A stretch of DNA of 64,000 nucleotides from Nanobdellota archaeon (GCA_038045765.1 JBBSXN010000005.1:30905-94904); one strand, 5' to 3'; shown: positions 13,039 through 21,660, numbered from the stretch's first letter. The notes: generated by a model from the sequence alone, not told the origin. Numbers and translations are program-made.

Positions 13039-14004
13039 ATGAAAGATAAAAATGAAAAATATGATTTTATAATAATTGGTGCTGGAGTAGCTGGCTTGGC
13101 TGCTGCTATGTATGGTGCAAGACTTGGATTAAAAACATTATGTTTAGGTTATACTCATAGTAGTGAGTTATCCATTGGTGGAGTCATTACAACAACTAAT
13201 ATTGTTGAAAACTATCCAGGTTTCATTAAATTAAGTGGGAGTGAACTTGCTGAAGCAATTGAGAAACATGCTAAAAGCTATGAGCTTGTAACTATTCTTG
13301 AAGAGAAAGTTATAGATGTAGAAAAAATAAAGAAAGATTTTTCTGTAAAAACTGAAAATAATGAATATATTGGTAAAACAATTCTATTTGCAACTGGGAC
13401 AAAATGGAGGAAACTGGAAGTTCCTGGAAGTAATGAGTTTGAAAATAAAGGAGTTGCTTATTGTGCTTTGTGTGATGCTCCTTTATTCAAAAACAAGATA
13501 GTGGGCCTTGTTGGAGGGAGCGATAGTGCTGCTAAAGATGCTTTAGTTCTAGCAGAACATGCAAAAAAAGTTTATATTATTTATAGAGGTCAGGAGATAA
13601 GGCCAGAGCCAATTAATCTAAAGAGAGTTTATGATAAAGTTAAAATTGGAAAGATTGAGATAATTAATAATGCTAATGTTAAAGAAATTAAAGGCAGTAA
13701 ATTTATTGAAAAAGTTATATTAGATAGAGAATTTAATGGAAGTAAAGAACTTGCCTTGCAGGGATTATTCATTGCTATTGGACATATCGCTCTTACTGAT
13801 TTAGCTAAGAATTTAGGTGTAAATCTCGATAAGAAAGGTGAGATAATACTAGACCATAAGACTTCTGAGACTAATTTACCTGGAGTATTTGGTGCAGGAG
13901 ACTGTGCTGATAAACCATTTAAACAGGCTATAACTGGTGTAGCTGAAGGTTGCACTGCCGCTTATTCTGCTTATGAGTATGTCAATAATCATCTTAAAGG
14001 ATGA
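13039..14004 (+). CDS. trxB: thioredoxin-disulfide reductase
   Basis: FAD motif DFIIIGAGVAGLAAAMYGAR. Redox-active CALCDA. NAD(P)H motif GGSDSAAKDA. C-terminal GVFGAGDCAD. 321 aa. Confidence 0.85.
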   Translation: MKDKNEKYDFIIIGAGVAGLAAAMYGARLGLKTLCLGYTHSSELSIGGVITTTNIVENYPGFIKLSGSELAEAIEKHAKSYELVTILEEKVIDVEKIKKDFSVKTENNEYIGKTILFATGTKWRKLEVPGSNEFENKGVAYCALCDAPLFKNKIVGLVGGSDSAAKDALVLAEHAKKVYIIYRGQEIRPEPINLKRVYDKVKIGKIEIINNANVKEIKGSKFIEKVILDREFNGSKELALQGLFIAIGHIALTDLAKNLGVNLDKKGEIILDHKTSETNLPGVFGAGDCADKPFKQAITGVAEGCTAAYSAYEYVNNHLKG

Positions 14005-14098: not shown

Positions 14099-14542
14099 AT
14101 GAATAAAAAGGGGTTGTCACCTGCGATTGCTACTGCATTACTTATTTCATTAGCATTGGTGCTTGCTGCTTTGATATTCATATGGGCTAGTAGTTTATTG
14201 AAAGAAAAAAACCAGAAGTTTGGTGAACCTATAGAAAATGCTTGTGAAGATATTAATTTCGCTGCAGAAGCTTATGGTGGACAATTACACATAGTTAACA
14301 GAGGCAAAGTTCCTATACAGAGTTTTGAAATAAAGAAGAAAACTGCTGGAAGTGTTGAAAGCTTGGGAATCATCGAAGGTACGAAAACACTAATAGAAGG
14401 CGAATCAGATGCATTCACATTGGATAGTGTTTCAGCAGGAGATGAGATTCTAGCAACTCCGATTATCTATGGTAAGCAAAAAGGGCAGAGAGCACCTCAT
14501 GTTTGTGATAAAGCTGAATTGAATATTAAAGTTGAAGCTTAA
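14099..14542 (+). CDS. archaeal type IV pilin (class III signal peptide)
   Basis: MNKKG|LSPAIATALLISLALVLAALIF: a short basic leader, Gly, then a hydrophobic helix, as in archaeal DUF361-type pilin N-termini. Small beta-rich C-domain with a Cys pair. Confidence 0.65.
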   Translation: MNKKGLSPAIATALLISLALVLAALIFIWASSLLKEKNQKFGEPIENACEDINFAAEAYGGQLHIVNRGKVPIQSFEIKKKTAGSVESLGIIEGTKTLIEGESDAFTLDSVSAGDEILATPIIYGKQKGQRAPHVCDKAELNIKVEA

Positions 14543-14549
14543 AATAAAT

Positions 14550-15056
14550 ATGATAAATAAAAAAGGTATTTCTAATGTAATTGCGAGTGTTGTTTTAGTA
14601 GCACTTACAATCGTTGCTTTAGTGATTATCGCACAGTTTGTTGTGCCTTTTGTTAAAAATAATTTACAAAAAAGTGGAGAGTGTTTAGATTATCAAAGAT
14701 ATTTTGTGTTAGATAATAGCTTTGGATATAATTGTAAGAAAAATGGAATAGGTTATGTTATCTCTGTTAAAGCCGAAGGGCAAAAAGATCTTGAGGATAA
14801 AGTTAGTGGGTTGAAATTAGTTTTATATAATGGAGCGATTACCACTCCTTTAGAAGTAAAAGATGGGAAAACTAGAGAGGCAACATTCTTTATGATAGAC
14901 CCTGGAAATTTTAAGGTTCCTAAGACTGGAGAGATACGGAGTTATGCATATAATGTTAGTCAGACTTTTGATAGAGTAGAAATATATACATTACTTAAAT
15001 CTGGAAGGACCTGTGAAACTCCGAATGATCAGGGAAGTTTAGGAGCGTGTAGATAA
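14550..15056 (+). CDS. archaeal type IV pilin (class III signal peptide)
   Basis: Start moved to ATG 14550: MINKKG|ISNVIASVVLVALTIVALVII. Cys pair in the globular part. Confidence 0.65.
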   Translation: MINKKGISNVIASVVLVALTIVALVIIAQFVVPFVKNNLQKSGECLDYQRYFVLDNSFGYNCKKNGIGYVISVKAEGQKDLEDKVSGLKLVLYNGAITTPLEVKDGKTREATFFMIDPGNFKVPKTGEIRSYAYNVSQTFDRVEIYTLLKSGRTCETPNDQGSLGACR

Positions 15057-15593
15057 ATGGCTAGTAGAAAGAAAGGACAGATTTGGATTGAAACGGTACT
15101 TTATACTTTGATAGGATTGGCTTTGATAGGTATGATTCTTGCTTTTACTCTTCCCAAGATTACTAAAACGCAAGAAAAAATACTTATTGAACAGACTATC
15201 AGCTCTCTTAAAACATTAGATCAGACAATAAGTAGTGTTGTCTCAAGTGGCCCGGATAATATTAGAAGCTATGAATTAAGCTTTAAAGAAGGAGAATTAT
15301 TTATAGATGGGAGAAATGATAAAATTTATTTCCAGATAGATGATTTAAAGGATTATTATTCACAGCCAGATGTTTCTATTGAAGATGGAAGAGTTAAAAT
15401 ATTATCTTTTGGTAAAGAGGGTGCTTCAAGTGTTAAGCTTGAATTAAATTATACTAATTATGCTAATATTACTTACAACGGTGCTGATGTTGAACAAAAA
15501 ATAACAAAATCAGCAGTATCTTATAAATTTTTCTTAAGTAACTTAGGAAGTCAGAATGGTAATCCGATAAAAATTGATATAAAATTGGGGTAG
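15057..15593 (+). CDS. pilin/pseudopilin-like protein with Glu at +5
   Basis: MASRKKG|QIWIETVLYTLIGLALIGMILAF has Glu at +5 after the predicted cleavage Gly. ATG immediately follows the upstream TAA. Confidence 0.6.
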   Translation: MASRKKGQIWIETVLYTLIGLALIGMILAFTLPKITKTQEKILIEQTISSLKTLDQTISSVVSSGPDNIRSYELSFKEGELFIDGRNDKIYFQIDDLKDYYSQPDVSIEDGRVKILSFGKEGASSVKLELNYTNYANITYNGADVEQKITKSAVSYKFFLSNLGSQNGNPIKIDIKLG

Positions 15594-15630
15594 AGAGAAG
15601 TTTTATATATTGCTAGTGTTTTTAACTAAA

Positions 15631-17154
15631 ATGTCGCAGATTAATCTGAATCCAATAATTCCAGTTCTACCTAAAAATGAAGATAAGACTAAAATTGATG
15701 TTAGGTATATGCTTATGCCTCCTTATGCTTCTGCACATATATATTGGAATAAAGAAATAAATGAACTTGCATATGACCTTGAAGAACCTGTTTTAGATGA
15801 AAATGAAAAAAATATTCTATCTGAATTGGAGAAAGCAATGTATGAACTGATAAATGTTAATGTTGCTGTTGAAAAATCAGTAGAAGCGACTACCATTTAT
15901 GTTGATAAAACTGCAAGGCTGCTCATAGAAGAGTTGAATATTAAAATATCTGATGATTCATATAATAAGCTTTTTTATTATTTATTTAGAGATTTTATTG
16001 GGTTGAATATGGTTGATCCATTACTGAGAGATTATTTTATAGAAGATATAGAATGTAATGGAGTTAATAGCCCCGTTTATGTTATCCATAGAAGCTATAG
16101 AAACCTTAGAACTAATCTGGTCTTTAAAGATATTGATGAATTAGCTAGTTTTGTTGAAAAATTGGCTCAGAGAACTGGAAGATATATTTCATATGCTCAG
16201 CCCTTGCTTGATGGAAGTTTACCCGATGGAAGTAGAGTTAATGCAAGTTATACTAAAGACGTAACTAGTAAGGGTCCAACTTTCACAATAAGAAAATTCA
16301 CTAAAACTCCTTGGACACCCATCCAATTAATTACATATAATACATTAAGTCCGGAGATGTTAGCTTATTTTTGGATATTAATGCAGTATAAATCAAATAT
16401 ATTAGTTGCTGGAGGAACTGGCTCTGGTAAAACCACTCTTCTTAATGCGTTAGCCTTTTTCATACCTCCTGAAGCGAGAGTAGTAAGTATTGAAGATACT
16501 AGGGAAATAAATTTACCTAGGGAGAATTGGCTTCCTGCAGTTGCAAGACCAAGCATTGGAATTGGGAAAGTGGGTGAAGTTGATTTATTTGATTTACTTA
16601 AAAGTTCATTTAGACAGATGCCTGATTATTTGATAGTTGGAGAAGTTAGAGGTAAAGAAGCCTCTGTTCTTTTCCAAGGAATGGCTTCTGGACACCCTTC
16701 TTTGAGTACAATGCACGCGGATTCTGTTGATACTTTAATTAGAAGATTACAAACTCCACCAATAGAACTTTCTCCGAGTTTAGTTAACTCTTTAGATTGC
16801 GTAGTTATTATGTCTCATGTTGTTGTTAACAAACAAGAGACTAGAAGATTGAGAGAAGTTGTAGAAATTGTAAATGTTAATAATGATGGCACTGCTTTGA
16901 TTAATACTCCTATGAAATGGGATCCGATAAGTGATAAATTCTTCTTTAAAAAACAGAGCAAGATATTTGAGAAAATATCTGCTAAAAATGGAATAAGTCT
17001 TGAAAAACTACAAAAAGAATTTGATACTAGAACCAAACTTATATATGAACTCTATAAACGAAAGATTTTTGAGTTTAATGAGGTGGGTAAGATTGTAAAT
17101 GAGTACTATAAGAATCCAATAGAGATTCTTAGTAGGTTTAAAATACAAGAGTAG
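15631..17154 (+). CDS. type IV filament assembly ATPase (FlaI/PilB/TadA/VirB11 superfamily)
   Basis: Walker A LVAGGTGSGKTTLLNAL, SIEDTREINL, Walker B/Asp box DYLIVGEVRGKEA, His box GHPSLSTMHADS. Start moved to ATG 15631. Confidence 0.85.
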   Translation: MSQINLNPIIPVLPKNEDKTKIDVRYMLMPPYASAHIYWNKEINELAYDLEEPVLDENEKNILSELEKAMYELINVNVAVEKSVEATTIYVDKTARLLIEELNIKISDDSYNKLFYYLFRDFIGLNMVDPLLRDYFIEDIECNGVNSPVYVIHRSYRNLRTNLVFKDIDELASFVEKLAQRTGRYISYAQPLLDGSLPDGSRVNASYTKDVTSKGPTFTIRKFTKTPWTPIQLITYNTLSPEMLAYFWILMQYKSNILVAGGTGSGKTTLLNALAFFIPPEARVVSIEDTREINLPRENWLPAVARPSIGIGKVGEVDLFDLLKSSFRQMPDYLIVGEVRGKEASVLFQGMASGHPSLSTMHADSVDTLIRRLQTPPIELSPSLVNSLDCVVIMSHVVVNKQETRRLREVVEIVNVNNDGTALINTPMKWDPISDKFFFKKQSKIFEKISAKNGISLEKLQKEFDTRTKLIYELYKRKIFEFNEVGKIVNEYYKNPIEILSRFKIQE

Positions 17155-17196
17155 TATTAATGAAAGGTATTTAAAGAATATATCCTTTTTTTTATT

Positions 17197-17358
17197 ATGA
17201 ATAAAGATTACATAAACTCTGTCGCCCATTTACTTAGTGTTATGAAAGAAGATGCTGAAAAATTGGAAGAAGCGGTAGGGAAAAAAGATGCTGAGAAGGT
17301 AGCTAGCTTAAAACAGGAGATTCTTAACTTATATTCACAAATTAACTCTTTAATATGA
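17197..17358 (+). CDS. unannotated 53-aa helical micro-ORF between ATPase and platform genes
   Basis: Own translation: MNKDYINSVAHLLSVMKEDAEKLEEAVGKKDAEKVASLKQEILNLYSQINSLI. Its stop overlaps the next start (ATGA at 17355-17358). Below the ORF-track size cutoff. Confidence 0.3.
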   Translation: MNKDYINSVAHLLSVMKEDAEKLEEAVGKKDAEKVASLKQEILNLYSQINSLI

Positions 17359-18623
17359 TCGAAGAACTAATAAAAAATATAGATACTGAAATTGACATTC
17401 TTAGGGAGATATCTACATATAATCAAAGAATTGAAAATACCAATTCATCTGAAAGAAGGCTTTTATTTGAAGTAAATGAATCTTTAGTTAATAGAATGAG
17501 GATAGTCAACTCTGCTATCCCGAATATATTAAAGAATATCTCTGTTGCTAAAAAATTAAATGAAAAAGAAATTAATACTAATCTTGAAAAAATTAATATT
17601 AAAATTAATGGTGGTGGTGAAAAATCTGTTGTTTTAAATAAAGGAGATAAAGAAAAGTTTCTTAACGAGCTAAGTATTTCTGAAAAATATATATCTAACT
17701 TAAGACATATAGTTAAAAAAGAAGTGGAAGATACTGCTGGTTTCCAAAAATCTAGAGGCTATATCAAGTTTGCAAATAAAATATTTTTTAACTATGTTAG
17801 AAAAATGACTAAAGATGGTGGATTTAAAGATCTTAATAGATTTCTTAGAAAAGCTAATATAGAGATTCTTTTGGAAAGCTATATATCTCTTATATTTCTT
17901 ACAACATTAATAGCAAGCGTATTCTCAATTATAGGTGGTGCCGTATTCTTTTACATGTATACTGGAGCAATTACTCAGAGAATAATTATAAGTCTTGCAA
18001 TTATTTTTTTAATTCCAGTCGCGACTTACTTCATTCTTTATTTTTATCCTTCTACTGAAAAAGATTCTCTGGAAGGGAAGATAGATCAAGAATTGCCCTT
18101 TGCAGTTATTCATATGAGTGCGATATCTGGCTCTGGAATAGAACCTAGTAGTATTTTTAAGATAATTGGCCTTAGTAAAGAATATCCTAATCTGGCAAAG
18201 GAGATAAGAAAAATATTAAATCAAATAAATATTTATGGATATGACTTAGTTACTGCTTTAAATAACGTATCAAGAAATACTCCTAGTGCTAAGTTGGCAG
18301 AATTACTTCTTGGACTTTCAACAAATATAAGTTCTGGCGGAGCGTTACAAACCTTCTTTGAGAAAAGAGCTGAAACATTATTATTAACTTATAGACTTGA
18401 AAGAGAAAAATTTACTAAAACGGCTGAAACATTTATGGATATTTATATTACAGTAGTAATTGCTGCACCTATGATTCTTCTTTTGATATTCATATTATTA
18501 TCTGTTGGTGACTTTAATATAGGAATAAGTCCTCAGCTTGGAACAGTAGTATTAATATTACTAGTAGGGTTAGTCAATTTGGTATTTTTAGGTATAATCC
18601 ACCTAAAACAACCCGCATACTAA
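17355..18623 (+). CDS. type IV filament platform protein, T2SS-F domain (TadC/FlaJ-like) with extra N-terminal cytoplasmic domain
   Basis: ELPFAVIHMSAISGSGIEPSSIFKII...YGYDLVTALNNVS...LSTNISSGGALQTFFEKRAE is the T2SF/FlaJ pattern. TM helices flank it. The N-terminal ~170 aa are soluble. Confidence 0.75.
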   Translation: MIEELIKNIDTEIDILREISTYNQRIENTNSSERRLLFEVNESLVNRMRIVNSAIPNILKNISVAKKLNEKEINTNLEKINIKINGGGEKSVVLNKGDKEKFLNELSISEKYISNLRHIVKKEVEDTAGFQKSRGYIKFANKIFFNYVRKMTKDGGFKDLNRFLRKANIEILLESYISLIFLTTLIASVFSIIGGAVFFYMYTGAITQRIIISLAIIFLIPVATYFILYFYPSTEKDSLEGKIDQELPFAVIHMSAISGSGIEPSSIFKIIGLSKEYPNLAKEIRKILNQINIYGYDLVTALNNVSRNTPSAKLAELLLGLSTNISSGGALQTFFEKRAETLLLTYRLEREKFTKTAETFMDIYITVVIAAPMILLLIFILLSVGDFNIGISPQLGTVVLILLVGLVNLVFLGIIHLKQPAY

Positions 18624-18624
18624 A

Positions 18625-19488
18625 ATGGAACTTCAAAAAATGCATTGGATTGGAATTATCTTTGGAGGAATATTAGTCTTAGTTAGCTTAATATTCTTTT
18701 ACACTGAGGTAGAAAAAAATCTATTTATTTTCTTAATTGGGCTAGGTATCGCAACTATGGCTTTTCCTTTCATAGTTGGAGTTGTAAATGAAGGTAAGAA
18801 AGAACAAGAATTAAATGAGATGTTTCTTGAATTCTCAAGAAACCTTGCTGAAAGTGTAAATATTGGTACTCCGGTAAGCAAGAGCATTATTAATATGGCT
18901 AGAAAGAAATATGGTGCACTTACTCCTCATATTGAAAAACTTGGAAATCAAATAGGCCTTGGAATCCCGGTGCATAGAGCTTTTGAAAATTTTGCTCGAG
19001 ACATTAATAATCCAGTTATAAGTAGAGCAGTTACTTTAATAAGTGAAGCAGAAAGAGCTGGAGGCGAAATAGATTATATTCTTGACTCGGTGGCTGAATC
19101 TATTTCTCAAATTGAAAAACTTAAAATTGAAAGAAAAACGGCTGTTTCAAGTTTAGTAGTCCAAGGATATATTATTTACTTTATATTTATTGGAATTATG
19201 TTGATGATGGAGTTCCAGATATTGCCTCTTGCCGCACAGGTAAGCTCATTGAAAGGACTTTCAACTAACTCACTTACTCTAGCAGAAGGAGCTTTACAAA
19301 CTCCAGTTTTCTCTAAAGATAATCTCGCTAGTTTGTTCTTATCTTTGCTTCTTGCTCAAGGATTTTTCTGTGGTTTTGCAATTGGAAAATTAACGGAAGG
19401 AAATTTGAAAGCTGGAATAAAACACTCATTTATAATGATGATATCTGCGTTCCTTATAACTAGCGGAATACATCTATTCAAAGTCTAA
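18625..19488 (+). CDS. second T2SS-F-domain platform protein (TadB-like)
   Basis: FLEFSRNLAESVNIGTPVSKSI...LGIPVHRAFENFARDINNPVISRAVTLISEAERAGGEI. N- and C-terminal TM helices. ATG follows 1 nt after the upstream TAA. Confidence 0.7.
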   Translation: MELQKMHWIGIIFGGILVLVSLIFFYTEVEKNLFIFLIGLGIATMAFPFIVGVVNEGKKEQELNEMFLEFSRNLAESVNIGTPVSKSIINMARKKYGALTPHIEKLGNQIGLGIPVHRAFENFARDINNPVISRAVTLISEAERAGGEIDYILDSVAESISQIEKLKIERKTAVSSLVVQGYIIYFIFIGIMLMMEFQILPLAAQVSSLKGLSTNSLTLAEGALQTPVFSKDNLASLFLSLLLAQGFFCGFAIGKLTEGNLKAGIKHSFIMMISAFLITSGIHLFKV

Positions 19489-19498
19489 TCTTTTAATG

Positions 19499-19550
19499 TC
19501 AAGATTCTTAAGTGTCGAATCTTGAGCACAGAAAATCAGTAGATTTTCTG
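19499..19550. terminator. double hairpin between convergent genes
   Basis: TCAAGATTC-N9-GAATCTTGA (19499-19525) and CAGAAAATC-AGTA-GATTTTCTG (19529-19550). Both are perfect 9-bp stems, read directly. Confidence 0.45.
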
Positions 19551-19551
19551 G

Positions 19552-20364
19552 TCAGGAAACTAACGGATAGTTTCCTGCATCCAAAAAACTATTCGTTTTT
19601 TTGATAAGGTAAAAAATCTCATTTTTTGTTTTAAATGACTCGTAGCTATAATTTAAACGTTTTAACAGTTGCTCTATCCATCCTCTTTGAGGATGGTTCA
19701 TGGGTTTTCCTGAGAGAGTTTTTGTTGAAAAACTCACTAATAGATATTTGCATTGGATGAATTTTATAATCTTCTCTGCAAGTTTATGCCCTCTCTCTTC
19801 AAGAACATCGAAAACCTTCAGTATTAGACATAAATCTACTTTAGGAAGGGGAGAATTGAGATTTCTTAAGTCGTATAAAAAAGCTTCTCCAGAAATATTA
19901 TTCATATTAAAGTATTCTTTAACTAAATCTAAATCATTTTGATTTATATCCGTTGCATAGTATTTTATTCCTTTGCTAGCAATGGCAATTGGATTAAGAC
20001 CGCAACCTAAATCTAAGATAGATTTAACATGTAATGAGGCAATTTTATCTTTTAAAAAAGAATAATCTGAAATCCTTTCTTCTGCTGATGAATGTGTCTT
20101 TAGCAAGTCTTCTATCTTTCCAGATTCTAATAACTCTTGCTGAAGACTAGAGGTATTTTGGAATCTTCCAGACATCTTTCTTAAATTGCCTCTAACTTCC
20201 TTTATAATTAGCTTTTTTTCTTTTTCAGATAAATCTTTCTTACTTACTTTATTCTTATCAAAATATGAAATTATTGCTTCTTGTACAATTGAATTTGCTA
20301 AACCGGACAATTCTTTCTTTTCTTTTACTGAAAAGCATAAAGATTTTATTAATTCTTCTTCCAT
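19552..20364 (-). CDS. FmrO/ArmA/RmtB-family 16S rRNA (guanine-N7) methyltransferase homolog
   Basis: LLKTHSSAEER, SILDLGCGLNPIAI, YYATDIN, LLVSFSTKTLSGKPMNHPQRGW and EIFYLIKK parallel remembered ArmA/RmtB motifs (LLKIHSSTNER; LDIACGLNPLAL; VSFPTRSLGGRGKGM; ELIYLIKK). 270 aa, the family-typical length. Confidence 0.6.
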   Translation of the reverse strand: MEEELIKSLCFSVKEKKELSGLANSIVQEAIISYFDKNKVSKKDLSEKEKKLIIKEVRGNLRKMSGRFQNTSSLQQELLESGKIEDLLKTHSSAEERISDYSFLKDKIASLHVKSILDLGCGLNPIAIASKGIKYYATDINQNDLDLVKEYFNMNNISGEAFLYDLRNLNSPLPKVDLCLILKVFDVLEERGHKLAEKIIKFIQCKYLLVSFSTKTLSGKPMNHPQRGWIEQLLKRLNYSYESFKTKNEIFYLIKKTNSFLDAGNYPLVS

Positions 20365-20431
20365 ATTGCAGAGTTAGATTATTATTTATGGGGAACAGAA
20401 GCTATATAAATTTAGTTGGGGGTTATATTAA

Positions 20432-21148
20432 ATGGAAAAGAGAGGAATCAGTAATGTAGAGATGGTATTAGCTTTTTTGATATTTATAGGGGCAGTTTTA
20501 TTCGCAATTTATTTCTTTGCTGGACAATTTAGCCAACGTGAAAAGTCAGAGAGTATCGATTATATCTATAATGTTATAATAGACAATGCTAAAGATGAAT
20601 TTAAGACTTATTCTATAAAAGTTAACCGAACTTCTTTACCTAGCCAAGTAGAAATAATTGCTATTGATCTAGATGTTGATTTTAATCTTGATGAAAACGT
20701 TGCTGCTTATGATTTTTCTGAAAATAAATTATCTTTAAAACTGATTAGTAATATTATTTATCTAAATATTAGTGATAGTGAAGATATAATTAATTTAAGA
20801 ATAAGTAAAAGTATATTGAATAATTACACACAGTTTTCTGATTCTCCTGTGCATAATCCTTCTAATTATGAAATTGCGAGTAGTAATAGAAATACTTTAA
20901 CTTCGGAAAAAATGTTGCGTGATTTAATTAGGGAATATAATTTAGATTATAATAGATTAAAGAGTAGACTGGGTGTGAGTAGGGGATTTGAGTTTGGCTT
21001 CGGAGTAAAGTTTTCAGAAACAGAATTTATTGAAACTAATAAAGAAATACCAAAACAAGTACAATTGTTTACTAAAAATGAAAGAAAAGAAATATTAAAA
21101 GAAGATGGAAGAATTGTTTTCTCAGACTTTAAGGTGAGTGTATGGTAA
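20432..21148 (+). CDS. pilin-like protein (class III signal peptide, Glu +5)
   Basis: MEKRG|ISNVEMVLAFLIFIGAVLFAIYFF. 238 aa. TATA-like GCTATATAAATT ends about 22 nt before the ATG. Confidence 0.5.
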   Translation: MEKRGISNVEMVLAFLIFIGAVLFAIYFFAGQFSQREKSESIDYIYNVIIDNAKDEFKTYSIKVNRTSLPSQVEIIAIDLDVDFNLDENVAAYDFSENKLSLKLISNIIYLNISDSEDIINLRISKSILNNYTQFSDSPVHNPSNYEIASSNRNTLTSEKMLRDLIREYNLDYNRLKSRLGVSRGFEFGFGVKFSETEFIETNKEIPKQVQLFTKNERKEILKEDGRIVFSDFKVSVW

Positions 21149-21182
21149 ATAAAATGAAATTTAGTAAAACTTCAAGGACTAA

Positions 21183-21219
21183 AATCCTTGAAAGCCGTCA
21201 AGATTTAAAAAATCTTGAG
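21183..21219. promoter_or_regulatory. triple AATCTTGA-type repeat in the spacer before pilin-like gene 21244
   Basis: AATCCTTGA (21183-21191), TCAAGATTT (21198-21206) and AATCTTGAG (21211-21219), read directly. They lie inside the spurious N-terminal extension of ORF 21142. Confidence 0.35.
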
Positions 21220-21243
21220 GTTTCAAATATCCATTCAAGAAGA

Positions 21244-21660
21244 ATGGATAAGAGAGGATTTTTGAGAATATTAGAAGCTATTTTGGCGGTTTTGATAATA
21301 CTTGGGGCTTTGCTTTTTGTAGTAATGAAAAATAATGCTCAAGATGCTGAAAACTCGGGAGATTCTCTTTGCAAAGAGGCAGAAGGAATATTAGAAGAAA
21401 TAAGCAAGAACAATAGTTTAAGAGAAAGTGTGCTTGATAGAGATGACTTAGCGATACATAATTTCTTAAGAATTAGAATAAATAATCCTTTAATTGATTA
21501 TAGAGTTAAAATATGTAATCCTGATGAATTATGCTCTTTGAGTGAAGGAGGTCTTGACAAAATAGATGTATGTGCTTCTGAAAGGTTGATAACAACAACA
21601 CCTTCAAGAACTGAATTCCAGCCAAAGAAGCTTAAAGTTTTCTTATTTAGACTACGGTAA
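21244..21660 (+). CDS. pilin-like protein (class III signal peptide)
   Basis: Start moved to ATG 21244: MDKRG|FLRILEAILAVLIILGALLFVV. Two Cys in the globular part. Confidence 0.5.
   Translation: MDKRGFLRILEAILAVLIILGALLFVVMKNNAQDAENSGDSLCKEAEGILEEISKNNSLRESVLDRDDLAIHNFLRIRINNPLIDYRVKICNPDELCSLSEGGLDKIDVCASERLITTTPSRTEFQPKKLKVFLFRLR

Follow-up and report, generated by a model that had tools for sequence, protein, structure and literature searches.

A lineage-wide archaeal type IV pilus locus with a split platform and a conserved 53-residue micro-protein in a Nanobdellota archaeon

Is a filament machine whose platform is divided between two genes, and some of whose pilins carry a glutamate shortly after the cleavage site, a mixture of bacterial and archaeal parts or an ordinary archaeal pilus? 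The question is raised by a gene cluster at positions 14099-21660 of a 64,000-nucleotide stretch of DNA from a Nanobdellota archaeon (GCA_038045765.1, JBBSXN010000005.1:30905-94904). This whole stretch, which corresponds to C5:30905-94904 of the assembly, is referred to here as the window, and coordinates without a prefix are counted from its first letter. The assembly comprises 880 kb in 7 contigs, with ~31% G+C and an estimated completeness of ~86%. On the plus strand, the cluster encodes, in order, pilins A, B, and C, a secretion ATPase, an open reading frame (ORF) of 53 residues, two platform proteins (P1 and P2), and pilins D and E; a gene for an Rmt/FmrO-like methyltransferase lies on the minus strand between P2 and pilin D. 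Matches to Pfam and NCBIfam models bear out the initial annotation in assigning these genes to a type IV filament system with a platform in two one-domain genes. The same annotation described the machine as hybrid-looking, with a Tad/Epd-type split platform and pilins with a bacterial-style Glu+5.

The sequence features behind that proposal are all present, while the hybridity itself does not hold, given an archaeal ATPase, platform halves that match archaeal models, and a gene order kept in about 80 genomes. A scan of species-representative genomes yielded 80 related loci at species level, from genomes of Pacearchaeota, Woesearchaeota, and Nanoarchaeota. In almost all of them the order is thioredoxin reductase-like gene, pilins A, B, and C, ATPase, micro-ORF, P1, P2, methyltransferase (minus strand), and pilins D and E. 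With this order and an ATPase that groups with afGspE and FlaI, the locus largely conforms to a known archaeal family of constant gene order. It is an ordinary lineage-wide pilus operon, and the bacterial-archaeal hybrid reading is largely refuted. Very probably, the locus encodes an archaeal type IV pilus, conserved by vertical descent in DPANN archaea of the Pacearchaeales type and working by the mechanism proposed below. What is new here is that the gene for the 53-residue protein is real, together with its predicted position as leaderless first cistron, its predicted fold, and its co-occurrence with an N-terminal extension of P1. Recognition of the locus as a standard machine of the lineage also removes a false "hybrid" lead.

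The secretion ATPase and the divided platform

The ATPase gene (15631..17154, plus strand) encodes a secretion ATPase of the FlaI/afGspE type (Pfam T2SSE, E 2e-32). Its Walker A motif (GGTGSGKTT), Asp box (SIEDTRE), Walker B motif (DYLIVGEVRG), and His box (GHPSLSTMHA) are all intact, and each of the four can be recognised when the protein is aligned to 2OAP and 4II7. Among PDB sequences, the protein aligned end to end with Archaeoglobus fulgidus GspE (afGspE; PDB 2OAP) at 388 bits and 39.5% identity over 481 residues, and scored 279 bits with Sulfolobus FlaI and 160 bits (33% identity) with Caulobacter CpaF. The NCBIfam FlaI model gave 395 bits, under its cut-off of 550, and the TadA model 147 bits, under its cut-off of 373; the Pfam match to PilB3_C reached only E 0.006.

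In a maximum-likelihood tree, 25 ATPases from the related loci grouped with afGspE and FlaI and were split from CpaF and from the second ATPase of the genome with full support (100/100). Within the archaeal part, afGspE paired with FlaI (96/87) and the DPANN ATPases were sister to this pair, in a tree with few references and long branches. The outside references were three, all on very long branches, and EpdL, PilB3, AapE, and UpsE were missing from them. Because the reference branches are so long and few, only the deepest, fully supported split was used. On this sequence evidence the ATPase is of the archaeal type and not of the bacterial CpaF/TadA type.

The platform is encoded by P1 (17355..18623, plus strand; 422 residues, one T2SSF domain, Pfam E 1e-14) and P2 (18625..19488, plus strand; 287 residues, one T2SSF domain, E 5e-16), two separate one-domain genes as first described. 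P2 starts 1 nt past the P1 stop codon and follows P1 in nearly all relatives. Both halves match only the archaeal ArlJ/UpsF/BasF models of NCBIfam. Residues 168-420 of P1 align to positions 5-248 of the ArlJ/FlaJ model, which has 555 positions, and residues 2-273 of P2 align to positions 265-536. P1 and P2 are therefore colinear with the halves of FlaJ and together equal one FlaJ, with P1 as the N-half and P2 as the C-half. The wider class was compared through 19 loci from other families; the platform is split in 17 of these, and at the other two the contigs end before the second platform gene becomes readable. Apart from these two incomplete loci, the split was seen in all of the ~100 loci compared across the class. 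It reflects an old gene fission that left the halves in the order of FlaJ.

These results bear directly on the view of the locus as a hybrid or horizontally acquired Tad-like machine, in which a bacterial split platform and Glu+5 pilins would have been joined to archaeal parts. Two one-domain T2SSF genes are indeed present, and Denise et al. (2019) linked platform fission to the clade of Epd-like and Tad systems, whose platforms they traced to the fission of a two-domain archaeal gene (PMC6668835). However, two tadC-like genes were reported from archaeal clades 1 and 4B and from many clade 2 loci (Makarova et al. 2016, PMC4858521), Epd-like pili have a pair of homologous one-domain platform genes, and Tad itself was derived from an archaeal system (PMC6668835). 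The split had been taken as the hallmark of Tad/Epd-type systems; since two one-domain platform genes are common to archaeal systems and Tad, the feature does not discriminate between them. The order of the half-genes, N-half first, also agrees with FlaJ. In Tad operons, tadB lies upstream of tadC. TadB was reported as the equivalent of the C-half and TadC as that of the N-half (PMC6668835), which counts against a Tad origin of the present pair. The likeness to bacterial Tad (Flp, T4cP) systems consists of two one-domain platform proteins and of CpaF as a distant homologue of the ATPase. It is offset by an ATPase whose afGspE score far exceeds its CpaF score and whose TadA score falls below the cut-off, by the fully supported split from CpaF in the tree, by FlaJ-colinear half-genes that match archaeal models only, by the absence of a Flp-type pilin from the locus, and by vertical conservation of the locus across a whole archaeal class. 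No secretin would be expected, the organism being an archaeon. Taken with the pilin evidence given below, a hybrid or imported machine is most improbable.

The N-terminal part of P1, residues 1 to ~170, is confirmed as an extra domain, because residues 1-167 lie upstream of the point at which the alignment to FlaJ begins. An AlphaFold2 model of this N-domain (pLDDT 85) comprises a helical hairpin (helices 2-26 and 31-53), a beta-hairpin (77-95), and a long helix (96-153) that leads to the first membrane segment. No Pfam family was found for the domain, and comparison of the model with PDB folds gave only generic coiled-coil matches (best E 0.04); a profile of full-length P1 found nothing among PDB sequences. 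More than 2000 full-length homologues of P1 are known from predicted proteins, with ~430 residues and ~50% identity. In a sample of 300 further genomes of the phylum, the complete N-domain was found in 13 of 14 genomes of the same family, in the single genome of the same order (1/1), and in one genome of another family, whereas in the rest of the class the C-terminal helix was the one part of it that could be recognised. It is a lineage-specific domain, predicted to be cytoplasmic.

Irregular forms of both genes were met in other families of the class. At three loci (L093:1018-3990, L102:8-2926, and L111:23-3025), the ATPase orthologue has 972-1000 codons, against ~520 in most relatives, and probably holds an intein or another large insertion. 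On a 3-kb contig from another family (L092:163-2016), a P1-like frame that follows a micro-ORF with an ATGA overlap is interrupted within T2SSF and runs on as a phospholipase D-like domain, so that either a chimeric assembly or a disruption of the gene is probable. A 634-residue open frame in genome G133 was considered as a fused platform and rejected. On its 3-kb contig, P1 passes into a PLD-like domain, and the frame is probably a chimera or a broken gene.

The 53-residue micro-protein and its predicted transcription unit

The ORF at 17197..17358 (plus strand) had been noted as unannotated and as ending in an ATGA overlap with the first platform gene. The overlap is upheld: its stop codon (TGA, 17356-17358) overlaps the ATG of P1 (17355-17357). 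An ORF of 53-55 codons is found at this position in 76 of 80 related loci, with an ATGA-type junction in 63; a lack of conservation in relatives, which the initial annotation had named as a refuting result, is thus not observed. The 77 micro-protein sequences align without internal gaps and display an amphipathic heptad pattern. Substitutions are of the coding type, with an entropy of 1.03/0.66/1.51 bits at the three codon positions (the second being the least variable) and a median proportion of nonsynonymous differences (pN) of 0.34 vs a proportion of synonymous differences (pS) of 0.76. When the micro-protein profile was run against 1.84 billion cluster representatives, 1107 clusters were matched at E <= 0.001, 293 of them at E <= 1e-10; the best 150 of the 1107 are all free-standing proteins of 48-98 residues. 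The pattern of conservation marks the ORF as a real protein-coding gene.

Among 5.8 billion predicted proteins, 57 called homologues of the micro-protein were recovered by a word-indexed profile search vs >2000 for P1, a gap that may partly reflect the limits of such searches with short queries. Called homologues that bear a name are 'hypothetical', and none has a Pfam domain. The micro-protein is often missing from gene calls.

AlphaFold2 predicted an antiparallel helical hairpin for the micro-protein (helices 3-28 and 32-52, pLDDT 96), and comparison with PDB folds returned generic helical hairpins only (best E 0.57). The possibility that it is a duplicate of the N-terminal hairpin of P1 was rejected, at an hhalign probability of 0.2%. 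Small alpha-helical or coiled-coil intracellular proteins were previously recorded in archaeal type IV pilus loci as arCOG05610, arCOG07479, and arCOG07564 (Makarova et al. 2016, PMC4858521). Compared by description, these resemble the micro-protein in being small, helical, cytoplasmic, and encoded in archaeal type IV pilus operons. The micro-protein differs in its fixed length of 53 residues, in its predicted place at the head of a leaderless unit of its own, and in its ATGA coupling to a platform gene. Since small helical proteins are already on record in such loci, it adds a further case to a known sort of accessory protein, and we infer that it is a cytoplasmic accessory subunit.

With regard to transcription, a simple spacing rule emerged from the genome. 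A TATA-like octamer stands exactly 29 nt before the ATG (-29) in 129 of 682 ORFs of at least 150 residues, against a background of ~2-3 per position. A spacing so fixed suggests that the mRNAs are mostly leaderless. Such a box (TATTTAAA, 17168..17175, plus strand) lies 29 nt before the ATG of the micro-ORF and is a predicted promoter by this rule; a box is found at -29 of the micro-ORF in 44 of 77 related loci and at -30 in 6 more. Another occupies 15602-15609, at -29 of the ATPase ATG at 15631. The ATPase frame is open from a TTG at 15610, and the spacing rule indicates that the ATG at 15631 is probably the start. TATA-like boxes also stand at -29 of pilin A and pilin D, and none at such spacing was found for P1 or P2. 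Transcription units are accordingly predicted by the rule to begin at pilin A (A-B-C), at the ATPase ATG, at the micro-ORF, and at pilin D (D-E). The micro-ORF would then be the first cistron of a leaderless micro-P1-P2 mRNA, and ribosomes that terminate at its stop codon would probably reinitiate on P1 at the ATGA overlap. In these genomes, the 29-nt rule offers a simple way to true first cistrons, micro-ORFs included.

The same arrangement could be explained if the micro-ORF were a mere translational leader cistron, which feeds ribosomes to P1 at the ATGA and whose peptide has no function. The TATA box is spaced for the ATG of the micro-ORF and not for that of P1, the overlap recurs in 63 loci, and upstream of P1 there is no sign of a purine-rich ribosome-binding sequence. 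It is the peptide itself, however, that is conserved, at 53-55 residues without internal gaps in 77 species, with the least variation at second codon positions, an excess of pS over pN, a family of 1107 clusters, and a confident fold prediction. In other families, moreover, the small ORF lies inside the operon and overlaps the ATPase stop codon, so that it is not a 5' leader there. A functionless leader is accordingly quite improbable.

The counterpart in these other families accompanies the length of P1. At loci with a long P1 (395-474 residues), 13 of 15 have a small charged helical ORF of 54-108 residues between the ATPase and P1, which in several families often overlaps both neighbours, namely the stop codon of the ATPase and the start of P1; at four of these loci the small ORF is matched by the micro-protein profile (E 7e-8 to 7e-3). 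None of the four loci with a short P1 (338-347 residues, without the N-terminal hairpin) has such an ORF, and the ATPase gene abuts P1 directly.

Pilins, prepilin peptidase, and the second locus

A class III motif (K/R-G followed by a hydrophobic helix) is present in all five pilin genes, with cleavage predicted from the sequence alone. Relative to this site, two classes of N-termini can be distinguished, as had been proposed. Pilin A (14099..14542, plus strand; 147 residues, KKG|LSPAIATALL) and pilin B (14550..15056, plus strand; 168 residues, KKG|ISNVIASVVL) have no Glu. Both exceed the cut-off of 20 bits for TIGR02537, with 30.9 and 21.5 bits, respectively, and Pilin_N of Pfam gives a weak match; pilin A also matches UpsA (E 3e-7). 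The motif is kept in 62 of 62 relatives of pilin A, as KRG|LSPVIATVLL, and in 60 of 63 relatives of pilin B, and the relatives of both carry the classical archaeal G|LSPVIATVLL without Glu. Pilin A is likely a major-type (PilA/UpsA-like) pilin with a class III signal, and pilin B is a second PilA-type pilin.

The other three pilins carry an acidic residue. Pilin C (15057..15593, plus strand; 178 residues, KKG|QIWIETVLYTL) has Gln+1 and Glu+5, and in its family (G|QVWIETV.Y) Q+1, W+3, E+5, and Y+9 are each found in 57 of 62 relatives. Pilin D (20432..21148, plus strand; 238 residues, KRG|ISNVE) has Glu+5, which is kept in 60 of 66 members of a G|xSHIE family together with His+3 in 55 of 66. Pilin E (21142..21660, plus strand, with an alternative start at ATG 21244; KRG|FLRILEA) has Glu+6, kept in 61 of 67 relatives (G|xxRIVEA). 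Counts of this order place the conservation of the acidic residues in C, D, and E far beyond chance. Pilins C and D are likely minor pilins. When each member was scanned singly, no consistent Pfam family was found for families C, D, and E. No pilin of the locus reaches DUF361 (PF04021) in Pfam scans, and the Flp-like layout is absent from pilins A-E (138-238 residues).

The glutamate at +5, which the hybrid reading drew on as a bacterial trait, is thus real and conserved in pilins C and D, and yet it is not exclusively bacterial. The Epd pilins of Methanococcus maripaludis carry Gln+1 and Glu+5 (PMC3875500), so the residue also belongs to an archaeal pilus.

Pilin E has an unusual leader, in which a 102-nt in-frame insertion (21154-21255) lies between MVNK and RG when compared with a related locus (L009) and with the second locus of the same genome. 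Its relatives start with MVNKRG, the nearest of them with MVNKQG|W. At its two ends the insert shares 95-97% identity with the leader of the short pilin in the second locus (C5:131013-131063), and its middle is a palindrome with ATCTTGA cores, which suggests that recombination between the two pilus loci made the insertion. As a result, either the leader is 39 residues long or the start has moved to 21244.

The initial annotation also reported neither a prepilin peptidase nor a FlaH/KaiC-like gene. This is correct for the window, in which no A24 peptidase and no KaiC-like match was found, and incorrect for the peptidase in the genome as a whole. The genome-wide search for a PibD/EppA/FlaK homologue detected one A24 peptidase of 285 residues, the single one in the assembly, at C5:138317-139174, 43 kb past the end of the window. 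Its domain match (PF01478, C5:138344-138679) scored 56 bits against a cut-off of 26.5, and both Asp motifs, QDLK and GGGDAK, are present; with the FlaK model it scored 51 bits against a cut-off of 330. KaiC-family matches were weak, all outside the window and far from the locus, and no convincing FlaH was found in the genome. Archaellin (PF01917) had no match in the assembly at E <= 0.1, a search in which archaeal control genomes were detected. An archaellum was therefore rejected as an identity for the locus, on the lack of an archaellin and of a convincing FlaH near it and on the FlaI score below the cut-off.

The peptidase gene comes directly after a second type IV pilus-like locus (C5:126359-139174, equivalent to window coordinates ~95455-108270 and thus outside the window). 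This locus encodes a T2SSE ATPase of 756 residues, an unsplit and very divergent platform protein of 714 residues on the minus strand (T2SSF E 0.0045), and at least 8 pilin-like proteins, including a 66-residue, Flp-sized pilin (C5:131013-131213). Its ATPase falls on the CpaF side of the small maximum-likelihood tree, possibly by long-branch attraction.

Relation to known systems, proposed mechanism, and neighbouring genes

Two conserved type IV pilus-like loci have been reported across cluster-2 DPANN archaea, including Pacearchaeota (Hamm et al. 2024, PMC11291902), and two per genome is also the number in the present genome. The part of that paper dealing with the loci presents them in outline, with a focus on large coiled-coil proteins, and in this part there is no mention of a 53-residue protein, a platform split, or a P1 N-domain. 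Among better-known systems, the euryarchaeal clade 2 of adhesion pili (Haloferax volcanii PilB3-PilC3 and afGspE) resembles the locus in the ATPase, with its end-to-end match to afGspE, in the PilA-type pilins A and B with their above-threshold TIGR02537 scores and G|LSPVIATVLL motif, and in the two tadC-like genes of many of its members. The differences lie in pilins C, D, and E, which have no detectable family, and in the micro-protein and the P1 N-domain, which are not described for clade 2.

The Epd (EppA-dependent) pilus of Methanococcus maripaludis, an adhesive archaeal pilus that belongs to clade 1 of Makarova et al., offers the other comparison. If the locus were strictly Epd-like, it would share a single ancestral fission with Epd and Tad and fall within or next to that clade. 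A platform in one-domain genes and the Epd signature of Gln+1/Glu+5 in pilin C would fit, and Denise et al. argued for one fission in the common ancestor of Epd and Tad (PMC6668835). On the other hand, the ATPase is far nearer to afGspE than to CpaF, the sole reference from the Epd/Tad side. Pilins A and B, probably the major ones, belong to the PilA type; with 147-168 residues they are not Flp-sized, and they lack both Gln+1 and Glu+5; pilin D has E+5 only, and DUF361 is not matched. The genome has one A24 peptidase only, with a weak FlaK score, and two tadC-like genes are found in clade 2 too. A strictly Epd-like system is thus unlikely. As judged by sequence, the locus seems closest to clade 2 in its ATPase and PilA-type pilins and Epd-like in its split platform and its Gln+1/Glu+5 pilin. 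It may be suggested, though only tentatively, that the micro-protein and the P1 N-domain form an undescribed cytoplasmic adaptor with a role like that of FlaH/FlaX or PilM/N, and that the FlaJ-colinear fission in DPANN archaea was independent of, or ancestral to, the Epd/Tad fission.

Taking the locus as an archaeal type IV pilus, the following mechanism is proposed by homology. Five prepilins, two of the PilA type (A and B) and three probable minor ones with Glu+5 or Glu+6 (C, D, and E), would enter the membrane, where the single A24 aspartic peptidase would cut them after K/R-G. A hexameric ATPase of the afGspE/FlaI type would then drive a heteromeric platform of P1 and P2 and lift the pilins into a filament. 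From their co-occurrence and helix lengths, it is proposed that the micro-protein packs against the N-terminal hairpin of P1 in a helical bundle on the cytoplasmic face, near the ATPase, and that this bundle may act as an adaptor between platform and ATPase. By analogy, the filament would most likely fasten the cell to a host or to a surface, acting alongside the giant surface proteins whose genes come next downstream. Pili are leading candidates for host attachment by host-dependent DPANN archaea, and to our knowledge no pilus of the Pacearchaeota type has been studied experimentally. Any reconstitution, structure prediction, or proteomic search ought to cover the micro-protein.

Instead of an adhesive pilus, the genes could conceivably encode a short pseudopilus, or a system resembling the bindosome, for the display or secretion of the giant surface proteins. 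The gene for such a protein is often the next one downstream in relatives, the ATPase scored 229 bits with the bindosome BasE model, and pilin A gave a faint BasC match in the NCBIfam scan. The BasE score is, however, far under its cut-off of 1000 and below the score for the FlaI family, and the downstream surface-protein genes have their own promoters by the -29 rule. Sequence does not separate a long pilus from a pseudopilus; on balance, a display or secretion device is distinctly unlikely.

Several points weigh against the proposed pilus and its mechanism. The ATPase tree, with its three outside references, informs on the deepest split and not on the place of the locus among the archaeal clades. 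Adhesion is assigned by analogy, and the filament is predicted from its genes. At this level of assembly completeness, a second peptidase may lie outside the assembled sequence. As to the adaptor, no natural fusion of the micro-protein with P1 was found among the best 150 of the 1107 clusters, and two long-P1 loci, L107 and L111, are without the small ORF. Fisher's exact test on the 15 long-P1 and 4 short-P1 loci gives p = 0.004 for the association of long P1 with the small ORF, a value that overstates independence because the short-P1 loci come from two families only.

Two neighbouring genes keep their place beside the pilus genes. The SAM (S-adenosylmethionine) methyltransferase gene (19552..20364, minus strand) is Rmt/FmrO-like (Pfam FmrO, E 7.5e-16), with 108 bits for the NCBIfam Rmt family model, under its cut-off of 250. 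In most of the 80 loci, this homologue of 16S rRNA methyltransferases has the same antisense position, flanked by P2 and pilin D; it is thus a conserved neighbour, which only its position would assign to the machine. The thioredoxin reductase-like gene upstream of pilin A (13039-14004) directly precedes pilin A in most of the related loci.

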